From a bacterium (GTDB lineage Bacteria; UBA8248): 64,000 bases of DNA. A program made the translations under genes and the position numbers. Under the pieces are notes generated by a model. The model saw only the letters and a program-made list of their open reading frames with translations. It had not been told where the DNA came from and did no database searches. The stretch lies in assembly GCA_965261085.1 (NCBI GenBank), contig OZ253442.1, forward strand, positions 480,001 to 544,000, read 5' to 3'. Positions 4,942-30,376 of this stretch are shown piece by piece (the stretch's first letter is position 1; each line of letters starts with the position of its first letter).

Positions 4942-5454
4942 ATGAAAAACCGACGGCTGAACAGGATGGGGGGATATGATTATTCCCAGGCCGGATGTTA
5001 TTTCGTGACGATTTGCGCACAGGACAGGCAATGTTTGTTCGGCGAAATCATCGACGACAAGATGGTTTTGAACGAGGCGGGCAGGAGAGTTGTCAATTGG
5101 TGGAGGGAAACAGAGAACAAATTTCCCCATGTCGAATTGGATGAATATGTCCTCATGCCGAATCACCTGCATGGCATCGTGATCATTCATGGCGCGTTTC
5201 AGGACAGGTCGCGACCTGTCCCTACGAGAACCACGAAAACCAAATCATTATCTGAATTGATCGGCGCGTTCAAAACCACGTCGTCGAAACAAATACGTGA
5301 AAACGGCTTCGCCTCTTTCAAATGGCAACGATCGTTTCACGACCACATCGTCCGCGATGATGACGATCTCAACCGGGTTCGAGAATATATCCTGAACAAC
5401 CCGCTTCAATGGGCGCTCGATGCGGAAAACCCGGACAATCGGGCAGGGTTGTAG
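4942..5454 (+). mobile_element. REP-associated tyrosine transposase (RAYT, Y1/IS200 superfamily)
   Basis: YDYSQAGCYFVTIC, HUH motif MPNHLHGI, WQRSFHDHIVR, EYILNNP (catalytic Tyr); flanked by GTAG REPs. Confidence 0.92.
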
Positions 5455-5531
5455 GGACGAACCCCTACTCGGGGCCGTCCCACAGGTCGCGACCTGTCCG
5501 AAAAAGGGACAACCACGGGGGGTTGTCCCTA
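5451..5531. repeat. GTAG-type REP cluster, right of the RAYT
   Basis: gtagggacgaacccctactcggggccgtcccacaggtcgcgacctgtcc followed by the hairpin gggacaaccacggggggttgtccctac. Confidence 0.85.
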
Positions 5532-5675
5532 CGTTGTCCTTACCGCTCCCCCCCTATTCTCATCGCGCGGGCGATCGTATAATCCGGCCTCCTGAGAATT
5601 TTCATGTCTTTTAGACCCATGAGGGGCGCGCGCGGCGCGGCCGGGGCCGCCCCTTTTCGCATGAGGAGACGATAG

Positions 5676-6353
5676 ATGACGCTATCTGGTGAAACGCTCG
5701 CAAAGTTGAGAGAAATCGACACGCCCACGGTGTCGAACGCGGTGGAATCCTTCGGCGTGCGCCCGAGGACGCTGGGCCATACCGACGCGAGCATCGAGTG
5801 CATGTTCCCCGATATGGGCGTGGCGCTGGGCTACGCCGTGACGTTCACGACCAGCGAGTACGCCCCGGGCGAGGAGCGCACGCACACATCGCGCATCGCG
5901 CTCTATGAGGCCGTGGCCGCCGCGCCCAAGCCCTGCGTTCTCGTGCAACAGGACGTCGGCCCCAGGCAGCACTCGGCGTGCCTTTGGGGGGAAATCATGT
6001 CGAACCTCTTCTCGCGCCTGGGGGCGGAGGGCGTGGTGACGAACGGGGTGGTGCGCGACCTGGAAGCCATGCGCGAGGCGGGCTTCAAGACCTGGTGCGC
6101 GGGCATGACGGTCTCGCGCGGCGACGTGCGCGTGGTGGCGGTGAACACGCCGGTCGCCGTCGGCGGGATGGCCGTGGTTCCGGGCGATCTGATCCACGCG
6201 GACGGCGGTGGCGCGGTGGTCGTGCCCAAGGAAATCGCGGCGGAGGTTCCCGAAACCGCAGAACGCGTGCTCGCCAAAGAAGCGGGACTCCTCTCCGCCA
6301 TCCGCGCGGATGACTTCAGCCTGGAGGATTTGGTGAAGAGGTTTTATTCGTAG
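5676..6353 (+). CDS. RraA-family / HMG aldolase-like protein
   Basis: DTPTVSNAVE, WGEIM, GVVTNGVVRD, PGDLIHADGGG. Confidence 0.88.
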   Translation: MTLSGETLAKLREIDTPTVSNAVESFGVRPRTLGHTDASIECMFPDMGVALGYAVTFTTSEYAPGEERTHTSRIALYEAVAAAPKPCVLVQQDVGPRQHSACLWGEIMSNLFSRLGAEGVVTNGVVRDLEAMREAGFKTWCAGMTVSRGDVRVVAVNTPVAVGGMAVVPGDLIHADGGGAVVVPKEIAAEVPETAERVLAKEAGLLSAIRADDFSLEDLVKRFYS

Positions 6354-6620
6354 GAGGGGGGGAGGGGCAAACCCATGTGTCCGCGCTCGAGTTTTATTTT
6401 CTGCAACATGTAATAAAAAACGAAAGCGGATTCGTTAAAATTCCTGCGCATCCTAGTGGCTCCCTGCCGAACCATCGTGTAGCCTCCTCCAATGTCCGGC
6501 TCCGATTCCACGATATTCGCCATCCTGATTCCTGAATCGGGGTTTTTGTGGTTCAATAGGACGGCTGGGAGTTTTTGGAGACGAGATAATACATGCAAGA
6601 CTAAATTAGTGAGCAACTCG

Positions 6621-7064
6621 ATGAGACACACACCGCTAAAAGCCCTAGATGGGAGTCTTACAAAGCAGAAGTATGGTGCTGTTAATCATCGAGTGTATGG
6701 TTTTGAACTCGTTCTTGACCTTCACGGGTGTGAAGCCGAGCTTTTCAACAGAGATTATATCGACAAGTTCTTTACTGATCTTTGCGAATTGATTGAAATG
6801 GAAAGGTGCGAAGTCCACTTCTGGGATGACGTAGGTGTTCCCGAGGAAGAACAGCAGACGTTGCCGCACACTAAAGGCACTTCAGCCGTCTGTTTCATTT
6901 TGACGAGTACAATCGTCATTCACACGTTGGATATTCTAGGCGCAGTGTACGTGAATATCTTTTCGTGTAAACCTTTTGAGCCGGATGTAGCGGCGGAATT
7001 CACAAGCAAACGGTTCAAGGCAGCATCCTGCAAAAAGACCTTTATTGAACGCACATTACGATAG
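6621..7064 (+). CDS. S-adenosylmethionine decarboxylase-like proenzyme (pyruvoyl-dependent, short prokaryotic type)
   Basis: YGFELVLDLHGC, GTSAVCFILTSTIVIHT (Ser at the self-cleavage position; T-S instead of E-S), VNIFSCKPF. Start could be 6492 or 6621. Confidence 0.8.
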   Translation: MRHTPLKALDGSLTKQKYGAVNHRVYGFELVLDLHGCEAELFNRDYIDKFFTDLCELIEMERCEVHFWDDVGVPEEEQQTLPHTKGTSAVCFILTSTIVIHTLDILGAVYVNIFSCKPFEPDVAAEFTSKRFKAASCKKTFIERTLR

Positions 7065-8454
7065 GTGGTATGTGGAGAATGAATTGCTTTTAAGAGAACT
7101 GGAACTTGACCTACCAGTAGCACTTGATAGACAGAATGCGCTTACACAAATTCGAGAGGCCATACGATTTCGGTTGCCTACCCACATCGTACCTCTTAGA
7201 TTCGCCATTACGAAATCAGGTGGTAGCCGTGTTAGTTGTGCGATCAGTAGCCTGGAGGCATCGCCTGAATCTGGCGATGCCGCGAACATTTCGATATTAG
7301 AATTTGTTCCGCGCAAGTATGAGAATACGAACCGGTTTAATGTCGTATTTTTGATTCCAACAGGCATAGGTGCCGAAATTGGTGGCCATGCGGGTGATGC
7401 TACGCCGGCCGCACGGTTGATTGCCGAAACTTGCGACACATTGATTTTGCACCCCAATGTTGTCAACGCATCCGACATTAACGAGATGCCAGCTAATTCT
7501 CTGTATGTCGAAGGTAGCGTAATCGCTCGGTTGTTGATGGGCACCATTGGCCTTGTTCCGACACGAGCGAACCGGGTGTTGGTCATTCTTGATGCCCATA
7601 AAGACGAGTTGTTCGTCAACGCCGCTGTCAATGCGGTGAGTGCAGCACGCTCATCTTACGGTCTGGTTAGCCCCGAAGTGATTAAACTTTTCCCACCCGT
7701 GAGGATGAGGGCTGAGTATACCGATTTTGGTACCGCTGCCGGCGAAATTAGCGGTCTTGAGCGTGTTTTTGCAGTGCTAGAAGAACAAGAGGGGGAATAC
7801 GATGCAATTGCTATTTCCTCAGTGATCTCAGTCCCGGAGGAGTTCCACCAAGGATACTTCGATGCCGCAGGAGAGATGGTTAATCCTTGGGGCGGTGTCG
7901 AGGCCATGCTCACCCATGCCGTATCAAGCCGATTCAACGTACCATCGGCACATTCGCCGATGTTCGAGACTCAGGATATTGCGAATCGGGACCCAGGGGT
8001 AGTGGAGCCGCGTATGGCAGCGGAAGCAATTTCCCTCACATTTTTCGAGAGTGTTTTGAAGGGACTTCACAAAAGTCCGCGAATCGTTACCGATTCATCC
8101 CAAGTATCCGATCCCGGTGTCATATCGGCATCTGACGTTTCGTGTTTAGTGATTCCTGACGGTTGTGTAGGTTTACCAACGCTAGCCGCGCTAGAACAGG
8201 GCATCCCGGTAGTAGCTGTGCGGGAAAACAAGAATCTAATGGAGAATGATCTGACCACGCTGCCTTGGCGATCCGACCAACTCCACATTGTTGAGAATTA
8301 TTGGGAGGCAGCAGGTGTACTCTGCGCGATTCGTGGAGGCATTGCGCCTGAGTCCGTTCGGCGGCCACTCTCACACACTCGGGTCACGACACGAAAGTTT
8401 GCCGACACCGAAAGTGAACAACATTCAGCGGAGAGAGCAAAACATTTCGGCTAA
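7045..8454 (+). CDS. DUF3326-domain protein with an N-terminal extension
   Basis: IPTGIGAEIGGHAGDA, ILHPNVVNASD, LYVEGS, VNPWGGVEAMLTH, PSAHSP, PRMAAE, VENYWEAAG match DUF3326 as recalled; the true start may be GTG 7072. Confidence 0.82.
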   Translation: MNAHYDRWYVENELLLRELELDLPVALDRQNALTQIREAIRFRLPTHIVPLRFAITKSGGSRVSCAISSLEASPESGDAANISILEFVPRKYENTNRFNVVFLIPTGIGAEIGGHAGDATPAARLIAETCDTLILHPNVVNASDINEMPANSLYVEGSVIARLLMGTIGLVPTRANRVLVILDAHKDELFVNAAVNAVSAARSSYGLVSPEVIKLFPPVRMRAEYTDFGTAAGEISGLERVFAVLEEQEGEYDAIAISSVISVPEEFHQGYFDAAGEMVNPWGGVEAMLTHAVSSRFNVPSAHSPMFETQDIANRDPGVVEPRMAAEAISLTFFESVLKGLHKSPRIVTDSSQVSDPGVISASDVSCLVIPDGCVGLPTLAALEQGIPVVAVRENKNLMENDLTTLPWRSDQLHIVENYWEAAGVLCAIRGGIAPESVRRPLSHTRVTTRKFADTESEQHSAERAKHFG

Positions 8455-8605
8455 AAAGTTGTACCAACATTACTCACTATCGAACTAAGCATACTCTTTT
8501 ATCAAGACTTACGCTTTAAATCTTAATAACGAATTTCCTTATTAAGCGTTTTCGCAACAAGGTTTACCCCCCCCCAATACCGCTCCGGCACGAAGGTCTG
8601 CTCGT

Positions 8606-8720
8606 TCACGGACGGGCATTGTAGAGGTTGGTGAGGCTATGAGCATTGAGTTCTCTCGCCGCCGTCCCGCCACGCGTGACCGAGCGTCCAGCCGGGTGTT
8701 GCAGGATAGGTAAGACATGA
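8606..8720 (-). pseudogene. Decayed C-terminal fragment resembling an MmeI-like (type IIG/IIL) restriction-methyltransferase
   Basis: Manual translation ...TAARELNAHSLTNLYNARP* resembles the recalled LKKRTLTNLYNARPxWL tail of this family. Confidence 0.5.
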
Positions 8721-8896
8721 TCCACCCTGGTTTTGCTCACAACTGTCTGTCAATTCCGCGGGTTAAGCGGCGTCCGAGTTGAGATATCCTTGACTTTCAA
8801 GCAACATTGTTCCAAAAGGGCGTCTGGCAAAGTGGCTTGGATTATCCGGGACAGATCGGCTCGAAACTGACATAAAGAAAGGGTGGAGTTGCGCGA

Positions 8897-10204
8897 ATGT
8901 TCTACATTTCCCGCATACGGCTTTCCAACATCAAATGCTTTGAAGAAGTGGATATTAATCTCTCCCAACCGTCTCAGGACAACGCAAGTTGGACGCTGCT
9001 TCTCGGCGATAATGGCACGGGCAAGACGAGCCTTCTGCGTTCAATCGCCATGTGCCTTTGCGACAAGACAGGAGCCTCTGGTCTTCTGACCGAGTTGTCG
9101 GGGAACGTCATCCGTGATGGATACGATGAGGCTAAAATAGAGCTGAAACTTGTTTCCCCCACAGAGCCGGACGCAACCTACACGATAACCACGACATTTA
9201 AGAAAAATGATTCGAACACCGAGGATGTTGACCAAACAATCGAACCGGAAAAAGGTTTTTCTCGCGCGGAGCTACTCGCGTGTGGTTATGGGGCCGCGTT
9301 CGGCACCATTGGGAGTGAAGTCTTTGATCAATATCGCCTTATCGATGCCGTCTATTCCCTCTTTAATTACGCAGCCCGGCTTCAGAATCCCGAGAATGCG
9401 CTCTTCCGCATCTCGCGGGAGGGAGTCGACCTCAAACAACTACTGGAGCGGATCGATCGAATTTTAATGCTCCCAATCGGCTCTACTGCTTTGGACTCAT
9501 CCGGCCTCCGGGTTTGCGGGAAGTGGGGTGACTATGTTCCCGCAGGCGCGCTCGGCGATGGATACGCCGCAACGCTTTCATGGGTCTGTGACCTTCTTGG
9601 GTGGTCGCTTCTCGCTACCCGCAGCAAGTTCGACGTTCGTGTTCGGGGGATCGTGCTTCTCGACGAGATGGAAAGACATCTCCATCCATCGTGGCAGCGT
9701 GAAATAGTTGGGTTACTTGCCAGGGAATTTACCGGTGTTCAGTTCATCGCGAGCACACACGCGCCTCTGACCGTGATCGGGTCAGCCTCGCTTTCCGACG
9801 AATGCTGCCAGTTGATCCTCTTCGAACAGGGCCAGGATGGTGTCGAAGTTCAATCGGGCCTGAATCCACCGCGCGGTCGGCGTGCGGACCAAGTGCTCAC
9901 CTCGTACCTGTTTGGGTTGCCATCGACGACCAGCGATGACGTTATTCAGAAAATTGAGCGATATGCGAAATTGAAGCGATATGACTCATCGGACACTGAC
10001 ACTCGCGAGGAGATTGAAAACCTCCGTAAGTTCCTGACCGAGACGCTTGGAACGCCGGAGACGGAGTTGCAGCGCTCGGTGGAAAAAGCCGTTCATGACA
10101 CTTTGAACGCAATGCTACGGGAGGATTTGGACAGCGATGTGCTGAGGTGGGAGACGCGAAGACAACTCCGCGATTTGTTTGCTCCCAAGGGTAAGCACAT
10201 ATGA
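8897..10204 (+). CDS. ABC/AAA_21-type ATPase, Septu PtuA-like
   Basis: RLSNIKCF, Walker A GDNGTGKTS, signature LGDGY, Walker B VLLDEMERHLHPSWQR, STHAP. Confidence 0.88.
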   Translation: MFYISRIRLSNIKCFEEVDINLSQPSQDNASWTLLLGDNGTGKTSLLRSIAMCLCDKTGASGLLTELSGNVIRDGYDEAKIELKLVSPTEPDATYTITTTFKKNDSNTEDVDQTIEPEKGFSRAELLACGYGAAFGTIGSEVFDQYRLIDAVYSLFNYAARLQNPENALFRISREGVDLKQLLERIDRILMLPIGSTALDSSGLRVCGKWGDYVPAGALGDGYAATLSWVCDLLGWSLLATRSKFDVRVRGIVLLDEMERHLHPSWQREIVGLLAREFTGVQFIASTHAPLTVIGSASLSDECCQLILFEQGQDGVEVQSGLNPPRGRRADQVLTSYLFGLPSTTSDDVIQKIERYAKLKRYDSSDTDTREEIENLRKFLTETLGTPETELQRSVEKAVHDTLNAMLREDLDSDVLRWETRRQLRDLFAPKGKHI

Positions 10205-11049
10205 TCAAGATCAATTTTCAGGAGCCGACGAGTGAGGAATGGCAGGAATGGCGCCAAAAATGCGATGCTGCCCGCGACGAAATGATTGAGAGTTTTGAGA
10301 ACGGCCAGAAACTGAATGTCACGAATCTTTATAAGGACCTGCGTATGCAGAGCGTATACAAGTCAGGAAAAGCGCCTTTCTACGGTAAGTGCGTTTACTG
10401 CGAGTCCGATGTTCTGGTCAATCAGCCAGGAGACATTGAACATTGGCGGCCCAAGAATCGTGTAACCGACGAGAAGGGTTGCATCATTAAGATTGAAACT
10501 GAGGACGGTACGACGGTCTCGCATCCCGGCTACTATTGGCTCGCTTACGAATGGCGGAATCTTCTTTTGGCCTGCGCAGATTGCAACAGACCCTCGAAGG
10601 CGAAGACTGATCGGCGGATCGGAAAGTCGGATCAATTTCCTGTGGAGGATTTTAGAGCAACAAAAATGGGCGAAGAATCCCAAGAGTCCCCTATCCTGCT
10701 CAATCCTGTCGAGGAAGACCCCGCAGCTCACCTCGAAGTCGATGATACCGGAGTCATAATCGCCAAGACCGACCGCGGTCAAAAGTGTATTGATATTTTT
10801 GGGTTGAATGACCGCGAAGCGTTACGGGATGCAAGGCGGGAGTGTATCAAAAACACAAAATCACGGATTGAATCGATGGTTTGGAAGGTGTGGGCGGCGT
10901 CGCGGCAAGACGACGAAGAAGATGCAATGCGCGAGCTTTCCGAGAAAGTTGAAGAGATCGAGAGCGGTGCGGCTCCATATTCTGCATGTGGTCGCCTCGT
11001 TTTGCTTAAATCTAGGAACAAGTTGGGACGACTTGTTGGCCGTTTGTGA
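10201..11049 (+). CDS. HNH endonuclease, Septu PtuB-like
   Basis: GKCVYCE, DIEHWRPK, GYYWLAYEWRNLLLACADCN, GKSDQFP, LLNP; ATGA overlap with the ATPase. Confidence 0.88.
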   Translation: MIKINFQEPTSEEWQEWRQKCDAARDEMIESFENGQKLNVTNLYKDLRMQSVYKSGKAPFYGKCVYCESDVLVNQPGDIEHWRPKNRVTDEKGCIIKIETEDGTTVSHPGYYWLAYEWRNLLLACADCNRPSKAKTDRRIGKSDQFPVEDFRATKMGEESQESPILLNPVEEDPAAHLEVDDTGVIIAKTDRGQKCIDIFGLNDREALRDARRECIKNTKSRIESMVWKVWAASRQDDEEDAMRELSEKVEEIESGAAPYSACGRLVLLKSRNKLGRLVGRL

Positions 11050-11190
11050 ACTGTTGACCACCCAGACCGCCAGAGGTAGAGACCCGTTCGTCGCAAGCCG
11101 TTAATGGGACAGGTCGGAAATGAAGAGCCGGCCCATCCAACACAGCGAATCCCTGATGGGCAAAAGGCTCTTCTCTGTGAGCCCAAGCAG

Positions 11191-11274
11191 GAAGAGCTAT
11201 ACGGAGGAGCGCTCATCCTTGATTTGCACGACTGCGATACCGCCATCATGCGCGCCGTGCGGACTCAACCCTGA
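11191..11274 (+). pseudogene. Remnant 5' fragment of a second SAM-decarboxylase-like gene
   Basis: Frame-1 translation EELYGGALILDLHDCDTAIMR aligns with RVYGFELVLDLHGCEAELFNR of 6621..7064; it ends at TGA next to a repeat half-site. Confidence 0.65.
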
Positions 11275-11294
11275 CCCTCAAGGGGGGAGTGGTT
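11275..11294. repeat. Solo end of the inverted-repeat element seen at 37167-37333
   Basis: ccctcaaggggggagtggtt is the exact reverse complement of 37164-37183. Confidence 0.75.
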
Positions 11295-11319
11295 TCTCCC
11301 TCATCGCTCGGAATTCACT

Positions 11320-11350
11320 TTGACACGCGCGGCCCGGAATGTGGTATGAT
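11320..11350 (+). promoter_or_regulatory. Sigma70-type promoter of the cupin gene
   Basis: TTGACA-19 nt-TATGAT with an extended -10 TG. Confidence 0.55.
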
Positions 11351-11419
11351 TCGGCGCGTTATTGGTGAAACCCCCGCCGGGAGCGGGCGCGGATTCAAAC
11401 CTCAAGAGGATGCGACGCC

Positions 11420-11773
11420 ATGAAGGTGATGAACTATAAGGAAGCGGAACTCAAATCGGAGAAGGCGGCCAAGGGCGCGGGCATCCGCTGGCTGCTCAGC
11501 GAGCGCGACGGCGAGACCGAAATGGCGATGCGGGTCATCGAAATCGAAGCGGGCGGACAGACGCCCGACCATTCCCACTCCTGGGAGCATCAGGTGTTCA
11601 TGCTCAAGGGCGAGGGCCGCGTGACCGTCGAGGGCGAGTCGCGGGACATCGCGCCGGGCTCGGCCATATTCGTCGCCCCGGGCGAGAATCACACCTTCCA
11701 CAACGATTCGGACGAGACCATGGAGTTCGTCTGCATGATTCCCGTGAGCGCCACCCAGGCGTATGAGCACTAA
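11420..11773 (+). CDS. Cupin-domain protein
   Basis: TPDHSHSWEHQVF...G...PGENHTFHN. Confidence 0.9.
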   Translation: MKVMNYKEAELKSEKAAKGAGIRWLLSERDGETEMAMRVIEIEAGGQTPDHSHSWEHQVFMLKGEGRVTVEGESRDIAPGSAIFVAPGENHTFHNDSDETMEFVCMIPVSATQAYEH

Positions 11774-11883
11774 GACGGGAAAACCTCTCGCTACAGCTTC
11801 AGAATATCTGAAAATATCGATAAATTCACGGCGTTATTCGATAAATTTCTGAAAAGGCGCCATCCGGCGGCTCTTCCCAAGCG

Positions 11884-11931
11884 CTACAATATATTGCGCT
11901 GAACAAAAATTCCTCACACAACATACAGGCG
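11884..11931. promoter_or_regulatory. Tandem NrdR-box-like motifs
   Basis: CAATATATTG at 11887 and CAACATACAG at 11919, 32 bp apart. Confidence 0.5.
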
Positions 11932-11959
11932 CTCTCCGTTCACTCGTAGAGAAACTCCC

Positions 11960-12143
11960 TCAAAATCAATTTTAAATACTATAACAAAGTAAATATCAAT
12001 AACTTATAATAATTCTTGCATAAACAACTTTAAGAGAGGCGGAATATCAATAAATTATATTATTTATAAAATCAATAAATACAATATGATATGGGGATTA
12101 GTAAAAAAACTACTTGAAATAAATCCTAAGCCTTTGGTATATT
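11960..12143 (+). promoter_or_regulatory. Very AT-rich promoter region with two IHF-consensus sites and a TTGAAA-18-TATATT promoter
   Basis: TATCAAtaacTTA (~11994) and TATCAAtaaaTTA (~12045) fit WATCAANNNNTTR; promoter at 12114-12143. Confidence 0.5.
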
Positions 12144-12170
12144 CCGCGAAGTCCCAATCCGTCCTATTGG

Positions 12171-13634
12171 GTGTTGGAAATGACGAATCTGGAAAGAGAT
12201 ATTTTCTCCCTCATCACGCTCGTCAGCAACGTCACGGAAGCCTACTCCGCCTGCTTATTCCTTGAAAACAAAAGGCGTAAGACCTACCAACTCACCACAT
12301 ATCACAGCCTCAGCCCATACATTCTCGCGGATGCCTCGGTCGATGTAGGACAGGGCTTCATGGGTTGGGTTTTGGAGAACAATGAGCCGTTAAGTGTCAA
12401 TCAGTTCGACAAAGACACCCTGGTTCTCGGTTATTACAGCAGAAACGAGGATATCAAATCCTTCATGGCGACCCCCCTGCCCTCTTCAATCAACAAAGGG
12501 GCGCTCGCCATCGACAGTAAAAAAAGTTGGTGTTTCACGTCCAAAGACCAAAAAATACTCGCGGGGTTCGCCCAGCAATTCGCCTACCTTGCAGACGGTG
12601 CCTTGACGACCGTTCAAGTGGAGCGACGCTCCATGAACGTTCCCGCCTTCAGCAGATATTTGACTTCGCTTCGCTCAAGCGATAATGAAGATCAATTGCT
12701 GAATGCGATATGCCAGGTACCGCGCGAGTTGCTTCCCTTCGACGCCTGCTTCCTCGTCCTCATCGACGAGGAAGCAGGCGTCCCCCGTCTTATCCGAACC
12801 TCTGGGTTTGGGGAACTCTTTCTGGGCGAAGTGACCATTAGTGAACGCGCAAGTCTGGCAGGCTATGTATTAAGCAAAAAGGAAAGCTTAAGACTCCCGG
12901 ATCTGAAGGGGAAAAAGGGAACCAGGCCTCTCTTTCATCATGATGAACCCCGTCTTGAAGCGCGTTCCGCCGCGTGTCTTCCCCTCATCTCAAGGGGTGA
13001 AATTCTTGGTTGTCTAGGATTCGCAAGCAAACGTCGAGCCCAATTTGACGCTTCTTCTATCCAGCGTGGAGAAATCATTGCAGCTCTTGTGGCGGATGCC
13101 ATCGCAAACCGGAAAAACGAGTTGCGCTGGCAAGCACGTTTAGAAATCGACCCCCTTACCGGAGAACAGAATGTGGAATATCTACATTCTCGTCTTCATG
13201 AAATTATCTGCGAGGCGGAAACAAAGGGTCGTCAACTCGCGTTGCTCAGCATCGCTCCTGACGCTTCATCAGAATTCAGTGATACGCCTGAGGAAGAAGT
13301 TATTCTTCATCTCTCAAATTCGCTTAAACCATTCGCTGCTGGAAATGATATTTTAGTGCGGCATGAGGGGCCACGTTTTCTCTTGTTATTGCAAGACTCC
13401 TCCCAAGAATACGCTGAAGCCGTAGCAGAGCGAATTATACATGTAGTTAATCACACCCCCTTCTACCTCGGTGGGAAAGAGTTCGAAATCACAATTTCAA
13501 TAGGTGCTGCATGTTTCCCTGAAACTGCGCGAAGCTCAAAAAGCCTTATCAAGTCATCTCTTGAAGCATTAGGTTTTGCTCAAAAAGGGGGGGCGGTAAA
13601 TCAATTTTGTTTTATGGGGGGAGATAGATCATGA
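12171..13634 (+). CDS. GAF-GAF-GGDEF-like protein with a degenerate active site
   Basis: Two GAF-like regions; IDPLTG and ITISIGAACFP are present, but the GGDEF position reads RHEGPRF. Confidence 0.8.
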   Translation: MLEMTNLERDIFSLITLVSNVTEAYSACLFLENKRRKTYQLTTYHSLSPYILADASVDVGQGFMGWVLENNEPLSVNQFDKDTLVLGYYSRNEDIKSFMATPLPSSINKGALAIDSKKSWCFTSKDQKILAGFAQQFAYLADGALTTVQVERRSMNVPAFSRYLTSLRSSDNEDQLLNAICQVPRELLPFDACFLVLIDEEAGVPRLIRTSGFGELFLGEVTISERASLAGYVLSKKESLRLPDLKGKKGTRPLFHHDEPRLEARSAACLPLISRGEILGCLGFASKRRAQFDASSIQRGEIIAALVADAIANRKNELRWQARLEIDPLTGEQNVEYLHSRLHEIICEAETKGRQLALLSIAPDASSEFSDTPEEEVILHLSNSLKPFAAGNDILVRHEGPRFLLLLQDSSQEYAEAVAERIIHVVNHTPFYLGGKEFEITISIGAACFPETARSSKSLIKSSLEALGFAQKGGAVNQFCFMGGDRS

Positions 13635-27900: not shown

Positions 27901-28977
27901 TTAATACTGCTCCGTTTCGTCTGTGCTCGGCTCTACGAATTCATCCTCGTTGTCTGGACCAAGAAAACCTTCCAATTCTCCCGAACGAAGCACAGGAATC
28001 TCCAGATAGCGACCCCACAGTAAGCGTGCTTCATCAGAGGCTTCTCCGTTGCCCTTGATACGAAGTTTCACGGAATCATCCCTCTTAAAAATGGTGGAGT
28101 AAAACTTCTGAACAGCGTAATTTATACTGTCGACCTCATAAAAATAAAAACGTCCAGTTCCACGAGGCTCCCAGTTTGGAGTCACAATTGACTTCTTCCG
28201 ATTATCAAAGCTGACGTAATGAATGCGAGCCAATCGAGTCTGGTGATAATAAAGTTCGTAAAATCCGGCATGATTGTTGTCTGTACGAATCTCTCCGCGT
28301 GTCCATTCCTGATAACAATCCATGTAATCTTCAGCGTCAGTGGCTCTTAGCGTGAACTCGGGAAAAATTTTGTGATAAGAATCCGCATTACTTCTAAAAC
28401 TTTCGGGCAATGGTGACCAGGCATCAGGTTCCCGCAAATACCGCTTGGCCCTTTCAAAGGGAGGAATATCCAAACCAAAGCGTTCACGCCACATCCGTTC
28501 AACCTCGTGGGGCTGCGCAGCGTTATTTGGCGGGGTGTTCGTATCACAGATACGCGTATAAACATGGTGAGCGGGAATCTTTTTATATCTCTCAACGAGA
28601 TAGTAAGGCTTATGTGGAGCATCCTCGATTACCAAGACATCTAGTAATGTTCCTTCGATCGTGATTTCTTGCAAATAGAATTCAGGAAATCTGGATTGAA
28701 AAAACTTATTGGCATTATCGCGAAACCAACCAGCTAAATCTGTCTGAGTTCTCCGTCCGGAATCCTTATCTATTGAATGCAAATGGAAGCTATCAGGATC
28801 AACCCCGTATACCAAAAACCGAGCCCCATCATGTTTGGCGTTCGCCAGACATAGGACATCATGAATTAAATCATCTTTGTTTTTGTGATGCTCGAACTTG
28901 AAATCCCAATACGTTCCCTCGGCTTTCCGCTTTACAAGATTCGAGATGGTAACCTTTAGGGCGTCTTCTTTGATCAT
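27901..28977 (-). CDS. AlbA_2/Schlafen-domain protein, possibly slightly C-truncated
   Basis: EGTYWDFK, LIHDVLCLAN, FLVYGV, HKPYYL, YTRICDTNTP; the frame stays open for 19 more codons after TAA 27901-27903. Confidence 0.8.
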   Translation of the reverse strand: MIKEDALKVTISNLVKRKAEGTYWDFKFEHHKNKDDLIHDVLCLANAKHDGARFLVYGVDPDSFHLHSIDKDSGRRTQTDLAGWFRDNANKFFQSRFPEFYLQEITIEGTLLDVLVIEDAPHKPYYLVERYKKIPAHHVYTRICDTNTPPNNAAQPHEVERMWRERFGLDIPPFERAKRYLREPDAWSPLPESFRSNADSYHKIFPEFTLRATDAEDYMDCYQEWTRGEIRTDNNHAGFYELYYHQTRLARIHYVSFDNRKKSIVTPNWEPRGTGRFYFYEVDSINYAVQKFYSTIFKRDDSVKLRIKGNGEASDEARLLWGRYLEIPVLRSGELEGFLGPDNEDEFVEPSTDETEQY

Positions 28978-29071
28978 ACTCGTCTTATCCTCACCCGTAC
29001 TTCCAACAACCCCACTCTTTCCCACGCAATGCGAAGTCATCGCTAACCTCGCTCATCCGGCTTCCTGTCGT

Positions 29072-29653
29072 TTATTTCTCTTTTGGTTCGAATTTCCTGA
29101 TCAGCCAATCGAGCGCGGCTTTTTGGTCGGCGGCGGATGCGCGGCGCAGTTGAGAGAGGAGCCACGCATGACTCGGCGGCTCCTGAACCACGTTCTTCGC
29201 CCCCTGATTGCAGGTGCTGCACAGAGCGCGAAGGTTCGAGAGTTCATCGGAGCCGCCGTGACTGTGATCCACGACGTGGCCGATATGCAGCCGCACCTTC
29301 CGGGCCGGGTTCAGATCGTCGTCATCGCCGGCCCCCGCACCGCACATCTGGCAGGTATAGCCGTTTCGCTCCAAAACCTGGGCGCGTACGCGGGTCGATA
29401 TGGGACGTGTGAATCGGTAGGCGTCGTGAACGGGTGGTTCGGAAACCAGTTTGTACTCACCGGGCTTCAAGGCGCCGTCGTCGTTGTGGGTGACGATCGG
29501 CCAGCCCTCGTCGTTTCGCAACTCACGCACCCGACGCGCCCATTCCGTCACGTGCAACCCGGCGGCCTCCCGTATCTGCCCGGAGGTGACGACTCGCCCT
29601 ACGTTGGCGCGTAAAAACTCGCGGATGCGAGCTTTGGAACCTCTACGGGACAT
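29072..29653 (-). CDS. HNH restriction endonuclease resembling R.KpnI
   Basis: FLRANVGRVVTSGQI, WARRVRELRNDEGWPI, QVLERNGYTCQMCG, LHIGH, LRALCSTCN, DQKAALDWL follow the recalled KpnI sequence along its length. Confidence 0.78.
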   Translation of the reverse strand: MSRRGSKARIREFLRANVGRVVTSGQIREAAGLHVTEWARRVRELRNDEGWPIVTHNDDGALKPGEYKLVSEPPVHDAYRFTRPISTRVRAQVLERNGYTCQMCGAGAGDDDDLNPARKVRLHIGHVVDHSHGGSDELSNLRALCSTCNQGAKNVVQEPPSHAWLLSQLRRASAADQKAALDWLIRKFEPKEK

Positions 29654-30376
29654 TCATCCGACCTTGCGAAATGTATGCCGCATTAATTCCTGCCCGATGA
29701 ACCGGGAATAGACCGGCGGTATCGCTTCGTTGATTTCTTTTTTCATCATCCAATCGATTCCCATCGCATCGCGCGCGGCGGCGATGGTGCAATTACCGCC
29801 GCCTGTCACCTGAACGTAGTCCGTCCACTCGTCGGTCTTGCCGTAATGCGATTTTCTCCTATCGAACGTGTGGACCAGCGGATGCGGCTTGTGCGGCGGA
29901 GCGGTGATGGGGAAGTTCGTCTCGAACAATCTGTGCCGAAGCACGCGCAATTCATCGAACATCGTCCCGCACAGCACGATGTAATCGCGAAGCGGGGAGC
30001 CTTCGACGTTCTCGATGACGTAGGGCCGATTGGTCTGAACGAGCATGTCGCGCACCGCTCCGACCAAATCGGGCCACTCATGGGCGTTGCCGTTGCGCTT
30101 CGCCAGGTCAGAATAGGCCTGGCAAGGCGGTGAGGCGTGAATCACGTCGAACGATGCGAGAAAATCGGCATCGAGCGTCATCGCGTCCGCTTGAATGAAC
30201 GGGAACGGGTAATTCGGCTGGGGCTTGACGTCTACGCCGACAACGTCGAATCCGGCCTGGTGATATCCGAGGGCGGCCCCGCCGGCGCAACAAAAAAGGT
30301 CGAGCAATTTTGGTCGGGCCGCCATTGGATAAGCCTCCATACTCGAATCTTCTTCTTTTTTCGGGCGTAGGTTCAT
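29654..30376 (-). CDS. Short DNA cytosine-5 methyltransferase
   Basis: Motif I LDLFCCAGG, IV SPPCQ, VI IENV, VIII RHRLF, X EAIPP; the start may be 30340. Confidence 0.87.
   Translation of the reverse strand: MNLRPKKEEDSSMEAYPMAARPKLLDLFCCAGGAALGYHQAGFDVVGVDVKPQPNYPFPFIQADAMTLDADFLASFDVIHASPPCQAYSDLAKRNGNAHEWPDLVGAVRDMLVQTNRPYVIENVEGSPLRDYIVLCGTMFDELRVLRHRLFETNFPITAPPHKPHPLVHTFDRRKSHYGKTDEWTDYVQVTGGGNCTIAAARDAMGIDWMMKKEINEAIPPVYSRFIGQELMRHTFRKVG

Follow-up and report, generated by a model that had tools for sequence, protein, structure and literature searches.

Gene content of the locus

We describe a candidate four-gene variant of the Septu defence system in a bacterium of the GTDB lineage UBA8248. 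The DNA analysed, hereafter the window, is a stretch of 64,000 nucleotides (positions 480,001 to 544,000 of the forward strand of contig OZ253442.1, assembly GCA_965261085.1), and coordinates are counted from its first nucleotide unless they refer to the genome. Four co-oriented genes lie on the + strand in the region 6400-11300 and encode a small decarboxylase that we call SDC, a DUF3326 protein and the Septu proteins PtuA and PtuB; behind them lies what remains of a second SDC gene, its truncated start. The four co-oriented genes had been proposed from the nucleotide sequence and its open reading frames (ORFs), a reading that we refer to as the original prediction, and the ORF map and family matches bear this out.

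SDC (6621-7064, 147 amino acids) is a divergent pyruvoyl decarboxylase that resembles the class-1b S-adenosylmethionine (SAM) decarboxylases (AdoMetDC). The mechanical ORF 6492-7064 matches PF02675 (AdoMet_dc) with its residues 73-187 (E = 3.1e-16), and the 60.1 bits obtained against a gathering cut-off of 25 place it in this family. Conservation among its relatives begins at residue 69 of the ORF and the likely start codon is ATG 6621. The Ser, His and Cys of SDC align with S63, H68 and C83 of the T. maritima enzyme, the processing and catalytic roles of which are described in the available sections of PMC10407285, and all three are invariant in 38 sequences of the SDC family. The residue preceding the catalytic Ser is a Thr, where T. 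maritima has a Glu. SDC also matches phrog_3125 (E = 9.2e-16). A role as a SAM decarboxylase, as originally predicted, is not what the profiles suggest: SDC obtains 29.7 bits on the AdoMetDC equivalog TIGR03330, for which the cut-off is 75.65, and what is by sequence the canonical speD-speE pair of this genome is separate from SDC, with a second AdoMet_dc protein (141 bits on PF02675) adjoining a spermidine-synthase gene at 1.222 Mb. The window itself contains no speE, as had been stated; there is no Spermine_synth match within 480,001-544,000, and the two matches in the genome are located at 1,223,390 and 344,533.

The stop codon of SDC (7064) precedes the DUF3326 start (7072) by 8 nt, so that the two genes abut as described in the original prediction. 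The mechanical ORF 7045-8454 matches PF11805 over profile positions 2-336 of 337 (E = 9.9e-90, 301.4 bits). We assign the gene to 7072-8454 because a homolog that is 98% identical (P0001) is 460 amino acids long and because the likely start GTG 7072 is found 5 nt behind an AGGTGG motif (7061-7066). The 460-residue product is of the long form, with an N-terminal domain of about 90 amino acids in front of the DUF3326 core.

PtuA (8897-10204, 435 amino acids), the ATP-binding cassette (ABC)-type ATPase of Septu, is recognized by PADLOC with an E value of 1.6e-59 and also matches AAA_21, AAA_15 and AAA_23. Its Walker motifs are intact, and Lys43, Asp256 and Glu257 (K43, D256 and E257) are invariant among 13 PtuAs that are linked to a decarboxylase-DUF3326 pair. 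The gene for the HNH nuclease PtuB (10201-11049, 282 amino acids) overlaps the end of PtuA by 4 nt. PtuB is identified by PADLOC at E = 1.1e-48, and its match to NF041761 (E = 7.6e-14) stays below the cut-off. By gene content PtuA and PtuB are those of a Septu system, and protection against phages is predicted on this basis.

The decarboxylase and DUF3326 form a conserved pair

A DUF3326 alignment was searched against one genome per species, and the best 80 of at least 597 loci were studied. Their DUF3326 proteins are 53-90% identical to that of the window and come from Nitrospirota, Nitrospinota, Acidobacteriota, Planctomycetota, Pseudomonadota, Chloroflexota and other phyla. The family had been thought to be mostly cyanobacterial and plant; relatives confirmed in at least 597 species-representative genomes of many phyla, and 1205 representative clusters at E <= 0.001, contradict this. 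Within the host phylum its distribution is patchy, with DUF3326 present in seven of 51 genomes.

A decarboxylase adjoins DUF3326 in 77 of the 80 loci. In 33 it is an SDC homolog placed directly upstream (tblastn), and in 44 it is a pyridoxal-phosphate (PLP)-dependent, carboxynorspermidine-decarboxylase-like enzyme within 1.5 kb, mostly also directly upstream. Three loci have neither, and in two of these the contig ends within 330 nt of the gene. The one PLP-type representative that was tested matches the nspC model TIGR01047 (E = 1.9e-82, below the equivalog cut-off) as well as PF00278 and PF02784. The DUF3326 proteins that accompany the PLP-type enzymes are about 53-62% identical to that of the window.

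Further examples come from the IMG/VR viral contigs (L166-L230), where SDC adjoins DUF3326 in 50 of 65 loci, nearly always directly upstream. The short form of DUF3326, without the N-terminal domain, is found in 45 of these 65 loci. Terminase, portal, head and nucleotide-metabolism genes were seen near the pair in five viral loci scanned for ORFs and among cluster representatives from others. A tblastn search of DUF3326 against 50,697 GenBank phage records gave no match and no PHROG family was found for it, so that carriage by phages rests on the uncultivated IMG/VR contigs. Natural fusions of AdoMet_dc and DUF3326 also exist (P0125, P0261 and P0204). Together with the 33 genomic loci, these data identify SDC-DUF3326 as a conserved two-enzyme module, in line with the original prediction. 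The module would be accessory and would be passed on by horizontal transfer, its carriers being mostly uncultured bacteria and uncultivated phages.

Recurrent neighbours of the pair are a glutathionylspermidine-synthase-like ATP-grasp protein (GSP_synth, E = 9.4e-134), DUF350, DUF1190, DUF2170, DUF4178 and PspA. This set has been tied to polyamine metabolism (PMC11237479).

Several other features of these neighbourhoods were noted. In 17 of the 80 loci, including L001, L002, L004, L005, L008, L009, L012 and L015, the gene directly upstream of the decarboxylase encodes a membrane protein of about 399 amino acids (cluster c5), which the window lacks. Neither Pfam nor NCBIfam gives a match for it, and hhalign shows no relation to GSP_synth or PtuA. 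Loci L008 and L009, with identical DUF3326 proteins, lie about 370 kb apart on one chromosome, and two copies of the SDC-DUF3326 pair are also present in genomes G032 and G044. The PLP-type pairs of Dehalococcoidia (L014, L020, L037, L052 and others) are flanked by a 1027-residue SecA-like protein, a double DUF350, DUF4178, PspA and several families that have no Pfam match (c4, c9 and c10), which together make up a large, conserved, membrane-linked gene cluster.

PtuA and PtuB recur beside the pair

PtuA-like genes are found in 14 and PtuB-like genes in 13 of the 80 DUF3326 loci, amounting to 15 loci from several phyla. In 12 of them the decarboxylase has PtuAB directly upstream; in the other three PtuAB is downstream of DUF3326, as in the window. 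The distance between PtuAB and the pair is mostly less than 40 nt, or the genes overlap; in L002 and L003 about 440 and 400 nt, respectively, separate DUF3326 from PtuA. Both decarboxylase types take part, as PtuAB occurs with SDC and with the PLP type (L017, L026 and L032). When the presence of PtuAB is mapped onto the DUF3326 tree, at least eight changes are needed.

The link was also examined in reverse, using the alignment of the 13 linked PtuAs as a query against metagenome contigs, from which 80 loci were taken. PtuB is directly followed by a decarboxylase in 19 of these (15 SDC and four of the PLP type), and in 14 of the 19 a DUF3326 gene is also visible before the contig ends. At least 1900 nt are available after PtuA in 36 loci, and 14 of these contain the pair. 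Grouped by PtuA identity, the pair is found in 4/4 loci at 40% or more, 3/8 at 35-40%, 6/10 at 30-35% and 1/14 below 30%.

A PtuA tree was built with 81 rows, from which high-scoring segment pairs shorter than 300 residues or containing stops (among them those of L002 and L003) had been dropped. All 29 linked PtuAs fall into one clade of 62 rows (support 99), and the sister clade of 19 rows contains none. The distribution of linked PtuAs requires four changes on this tree, compared with a mean of 14.6 after shuffling, and none of 500 shuffles was as low. Moreover, strong matches to the linked-PtuA profile (E < 1e-150) occur in four of the 51 genomes of the host phylum, and each lies within about 2 kb of a DUF3326 gene. 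The link between Septu and the pair is not a chance one. The Septu-like ATPase and HNH gene noted beside the pair in the original prediction are thus part of a conserved and reciprocal association (15/80 genomic and 19/80 metagenome loci).

In addition, a gene resembling 4-(hydroxymethyl)-2-furancarboxaldehyde-phosphate (4-HFC-P) synthase (MfnB; PF04476, E about 1e-38) is located beside PtuA in 13 of the 80 metagenome loci and in the genomic loci L010 and L019. It is often co-oriented and directly upstream of PtuA (L086, L104, L123 and L134 are among the loci concerned) and could be an additional, fifth component of the operon.

Proposed reaction of the pair

The pair is probably a polyamine-type synthase and its decarboxylase, and together SDC and DUF3326 would build a polyamine-type secondary amine. 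DUF3326 would join an amine to an amino-acid-derived unit, after which the decarboxylase would strip off the carboxyl group. This scheme mirrors that of carboxy(nor)spermidine dehydrogenase (CANSDH) and decarboxylase (CANSDC), and that of PavB and PavA, with DUF3326 most likely standing in for the dehydrogenase. By analogy with homospermidine synthase the reverse order may apply instead, in which decarboxylation comes first and condensation follows.

DUF3326 proteins about 53-90% identical to that of the window have one or the other of two unrelated decarboxylases beside them, from which we infer that these decarboxylases do the same job. With a PLP-type enzyme in the position of SDC, the substrate would be an amino acid or a carboxy-polyamine and decarboxylation of SAM becomes unlikely. 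The chemistry originally predicted, in which DUF3326 uses decarboxylated SAM (dcSAM) or the pair depletes SAM, is probably wrong as judged from the gene content of these loci, since the PLP-type enzyme fills the same slot in 44 of 80. In five Dehalococcoidia genomes that carry the PLP-type pair no convincing CANSDH was found, the best match to PF16653 (the saccharopine-dehydrogenase-family CANSDH) being partial, with 32.3 bits; the genome of the window has no match to PF16653.

Experimental information on the family comes from the pavettamine pathway. According to the available part of a preprint (bioRxiv 10.64898/2026.06.12.731819), PavB is a DUF3326 protein, PavA bears a carboxynorspermidine-decarboxylase-like domain and both are needed for the formation of N-(5-aminopentyl)pentane-1,5-diamine.

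History of the locus

A conserved intergenic region of 442 nt (8455-8896) separates DUF3326 from PtuA. It aligns with the corresponding regions of L002 and L003, the two closest PtuAB-bearing relatives, with a mean column identity of 81%. An inverted repeat of 8 bp within it is fully conserved in two of these three sequences and almost fully in the remaining one. The original prediction had interpreted this region as the scar of a restriction-modification (R-M) system. No R-M remnant was found here: none of the 11 stop-to-stop frames of 8455-8896 has a Pfam match at E <= 1, and an Rfam scan of 5500-12500 gave no match either. The covariation term of RNAalifold (+1.47) gives no support for a structured RNA in the gap. 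In a promoter and terminator scan of 6200-11500, sites were no more numerous than in shuffled sequence.

The second decarboxylase remnant that had been suggested downstream of PtuB is real. A 56-codon ORF on the + strand (11104-11274) shows the strand motif found at the N-terminus of SDC proteins and corresponds to the N-terminal part only, with homology over about 11185-11247. Its local alignment score is 69, compared with 30.5 +/- 4.2 (maximum 49) in 200 shuffles, and tblastn relates it to the N-terminal parts of SDC in L057 and L066. From the last part of PtuB into this relic, the DNA aligns with the PtuB-SDC junction of L047, a Terriglobia genome with the gene order PtuA-PtuB-SDC-DUF3326, and then diverges. 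The break coincides with the start of a short dispersed repeat (11267-11315), which has 14 more partial copies in the genome (blastn). An ORF for an IS200-like Y1 transposase (4942-5454; PF01797, E = 2.4e-6) is located upstream of the locus; this transposase and the repeat may together represent a repetitive extragenic palindrome (REP)/REP-associated tyrosine transposase (RAYT)-type system.

Compared with L047, PtuA of the window is 77% identical and DUF3326 only 56%. The DUF3326 of the window shares 90% identity with its counterpart in a Nitrospirales genome without PtuAB. The SDC relic behind PtuB, taken with this contrast between PtuA and DUF3326, indicates that a resident SDC-DUF3326 pair was joined by an L047-type cassette (PtuA-PtuB-SDC-DUF3326), which then lost its own pair.

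Relation to known systems

The closest parallel to the pair is PavA/PavB, where a DUF3326 protein likewise has a decarboxylase encoded next to it and formation of a triamine depends on the two together. The PLP-type partner present in 44 of the 80 loci and the PavA domain are both carboxynorspermidine-decarboxylase-like. The systems differ in that PavA is a Rieske-PLP fusion, whereas the decarboxylase of the window is a small pyruvoyl AdoMetDC-like protein, and in that the PavC-like hydroxylase of the pavettamine pathway has no counterpart in the window. The available part of the preprint (bioRxiv 10.64898/2026.06.12.731819) makes no mention of a PtuAB link.

CANSDH/CANSDC follows the same logic of condensation and subsequent decarboxylation that we propose for the pair, an nspC-like decarboxylase is adjacent to DUF3326 in the PLP-type loci, and a convincing CANSDH is missing from all five PLP-type genomes examined. 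DUF3326 itself has no detectable relation to the saccharopine-dehydrogenase family (saccharopine reductase appears at Z = 8.7 among many generic structural matches). A mechanistic analogy is offered by MccD/MccE of microcin C, where a carboxylated aminoalkyl group is added and then decarboxylated by a domain with the ornithine/diaminopimelate-decarboxylase fold.

SDC resembles SpeDA and SpeDC, small class-1b AdoMetDC homologs that also keep the Ser, His and Cys residues. As far as the available sections of PMC10407285 and PMC9992855 go, these proteins are found in the absence of speE, their genes cluster with that of the next polyamine enzyme and phages commonly carry them; DUF3326 is not named there. 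AdoMetDC homologs that have switched to the decarboxylation of ornithine or arginine are described in PMC10407285, and phage-encoded polyamine enzymes, AdoMetDC homologs included, in PMC9992855. The SDC family differs from SpeDA and SpeDC by its own conserved motifs and by its DUF3326 partner.

Retron Ec78 (type I-A) provides a precedent for PtuAB joined to an extra module (PMC13376987, available sections). There the module consists of a reverse transcriptase (RT) plus a non-coding RNA, whereas in the type seen in the window it is a pair of small-molecule enzymes. PtuA and PtuB of the window reach 105.8 and 52.1 bits on the NCBIfam retron-type equivalogs, for which the cut-offs are 500 and 150. 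A general domain scan of nine ORFs, which was not a search aimed at RT, found no RT domain, and the Rfam scan of 5500-12500 mentioned above gave no match.

Interpretation

We lean towards the reading that an amine module has been combined with the PtuAB of a Septu clade whose members habitually share an operon with such modules, which would make the locus a four-gene Septu variant, PtuA-PtuB-decarboxylase-DUF3326. On the sequences compared this variant appears to be real, and it is previously undescribed in the literature searched (supplements excluded). There, no link of Septu or PtuA to decarboxylase, spermidine or polyamine genes is described, DUF3326 is named in three papers and 'PF11805' is not mentioned. 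The central idea of the original prediction, an undescribed four-gene unit, is thus supported by conserved and reciprocal gene linkage, as obtained from the kind of neighbourhood survey that had been proposed with it. We further infer that the amine product matters to the function of PtuAB.

A number of observations weigh against this reading. The pair occurs without PtuAB in 65 of the 80 genomic loci, and none of the 65 IMG/VR loci has PtuAB beside DUF3326; the 50 viral-contig loci that carry the pair in this form speak against a defence role of the pair itself. PtuAB in turn does not depend on the pair, as seven unlinked PtuAs are located inside the linked clade. The counts from metagenomes (19/80) were obtained with linked PtuAs only as query and describe that Septu subfamily, not Septu at large. 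Across 21 linked loci the identities of PtuA and DUF3326 are not clearly correlated (Spearman r = 0.124, a value reached by 205 of 2000 permutations), which indicates that the two halves have been reshuffled and were not strictly co-inherited. Such reshuffling fits repeated re-association, yet weakens a claim of strict co-evolution. In the window the 442-nt gap parts the pair from PtuA, so that co-transcription is a prediction here.

The proposed chemistry also has points against it. DUF3326 has no recognizable catalytic or cofactor signature. The structure comparison suggested in the original prediction yielded a confident AlphaFold2 model (pLDDT 94.7, pTM 0.92) but no informative fold relative: Foldseek against the PDB and BFVD returned nothing at E <= 0.001, and a wide VIA-align search gave generic Rossmann-like matches only (Z = 8-10.7 over about 135 of 460 residues). 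A profile search of the PDB produced one spurious L23 match (E = 0.013) and no relative, a protein-atlas search no relative, and weak Pfam scans across 82 DUF3326 members no recurrent match. The pavettamine preprint, available in part, is the sole experimental datum found for DUF3326; it has not undergone peer review and does not settle which reaction comes first, and PavB and the DUF3326 of the window are likened by family membership, not by sequence identity.

Many of these observations would be expected if the pair were plain accessory polyamine metabolism, in the manner of auxiliary metabolic genes, and PtuAB merely travelled with it on mobile DNA without functional interplay. The 65 loci without PtuAB show the pair in polyamine- or membrane-linked contexts, phage-like contigs hold it among terminase, portal and head genes, and phage AdoMetDC homologs are already known (PMC9992855, available sections). 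The lack of a clear PtuA-DUF3326 co-phylogeny, the 442-nt gap and the patchy occurrence of DUF3326 in the host phylum point the same way. The loci without PtuAB and the phage-like contigs also speak against the pair being an anti-phage system by itself, as had been considered in the original prediction. We nevertheless regard simple co-travel as a serious but rather doubtful explanation of the whole, since PtuAB and the pair are found side by side repeatedly, in several phyla, with either gene order and either decarboxylase type, with gaps mostly below 40 nt and at PtuA identities down to about 30%. The confinement of 29/29 linked PtuAs to one 62-row clade and the proximity of all four strong PtuA matches in the phylum to DUF3326 add to this, and without selection it would be difficult to account for re-association on repeated occasions.

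Quite unlikely, in our view, is that SDC is a true SAM decarboxylase whose dcSAM is used by DUF3326 to aminopropylate a small molecule or nucleic acid, or that the pair depletes SAM against phages. SDC does belong to PF02675 with its catalytic Ser, His and Cys kept, no speE is nearby, and a role for AdoMetDC outside polyamine synthesis is cited second-hand in PMC11237479 (available sections). The nspC-like enzyme in the same slot, beside DUF3326 proteins about 53-62% identical to that of the window, is difficult to reconcile with this, as are the score far under the AdoMetDC equivalog cut-off, the Thr in place of the T. maritima Glu before the catalytic Ser, the separate speD-speE pair and the known switches of AdoMetDC homologs to ornithine or arginine (PMC10407285, available sections). 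Least credible of all is an R-M-like system, in which the pair, in some loci with the MfnB-like aldolase, would mark host DNA or RNA and PtuAB would cut unmarked nucleic acid. An HNH nuclease operonically linked to biosynthetic enzymes is what one would look for in such a system, and the 4-HFC-P-synthase-like gene beside PtuA would suit it. Against it, Pfam scans found no nucleic-acid-binding or transferase domain in SDC or DUF3326, most pairs lack any nuclease, and the one experimental result for DUF3326, in the part of the preprint available, is a free polyamine.

For the four-gene Septu variant that we favour, one can speculate how the amine would act. In a metabolite-guarded Septu, the amine made by the pair would restrain or tune PtuAB, the role that multicopy single-stranded DNA (msDNA) has in retron Ec78. 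Infection would halt host synthesis, the amine would fall and PtuAB would fire, and the SDC-DUF3326 pairs of phages would serve as a counter-defence 'antidote' beyond any polyamine gain. We consider this specific mechanism improbable as it stands.

If the four-gene variant and its proposed chemistry hold, DUF3326, a large family without a solved structure, would gain a testable function: we propose it as the partner hitherto missing for 'orphan' decarboxylases of the AdoMetDC-like and nspC-like types, in many uncultured bacteria as well as in uncultivated phages. A two-enzyme polyamine module would join the auxiliary metabolic genes of phages, of which the published ones are mostly single enzymes in the source sections available. 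A Septu branch with small-molecule biosynthesis genes would link polyamine-type metabolites to nuclease-based immunity and provide a handle on how Septu stays inactive before infection.

Surroundings of the locus

The GC content drops near 6400 from about 63% to about 50%. The lower-GC block of the original prediction is therefore present, but it is not limited to 6400-11294: low GC persists to about 30 kb, through genes for a GGDEF protein, MreB, shikimate dehydrogenase (aroE) and metabolic enzymes. The whole genome has 18 low-GC runs of at least 15 kb. Because low GC runs on in this way and is found in 18 such runs, we reject a discrete defence island at 6400-11294; the block includes housekeeping genes. 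At its far end, on the - strand (27901-30376), a Schlafen AlbA_2 protein, an HNH endonuclease and a short C5 DNA-methylase-like ORF adjoin one another and may form a second small defence or R-M cluster.

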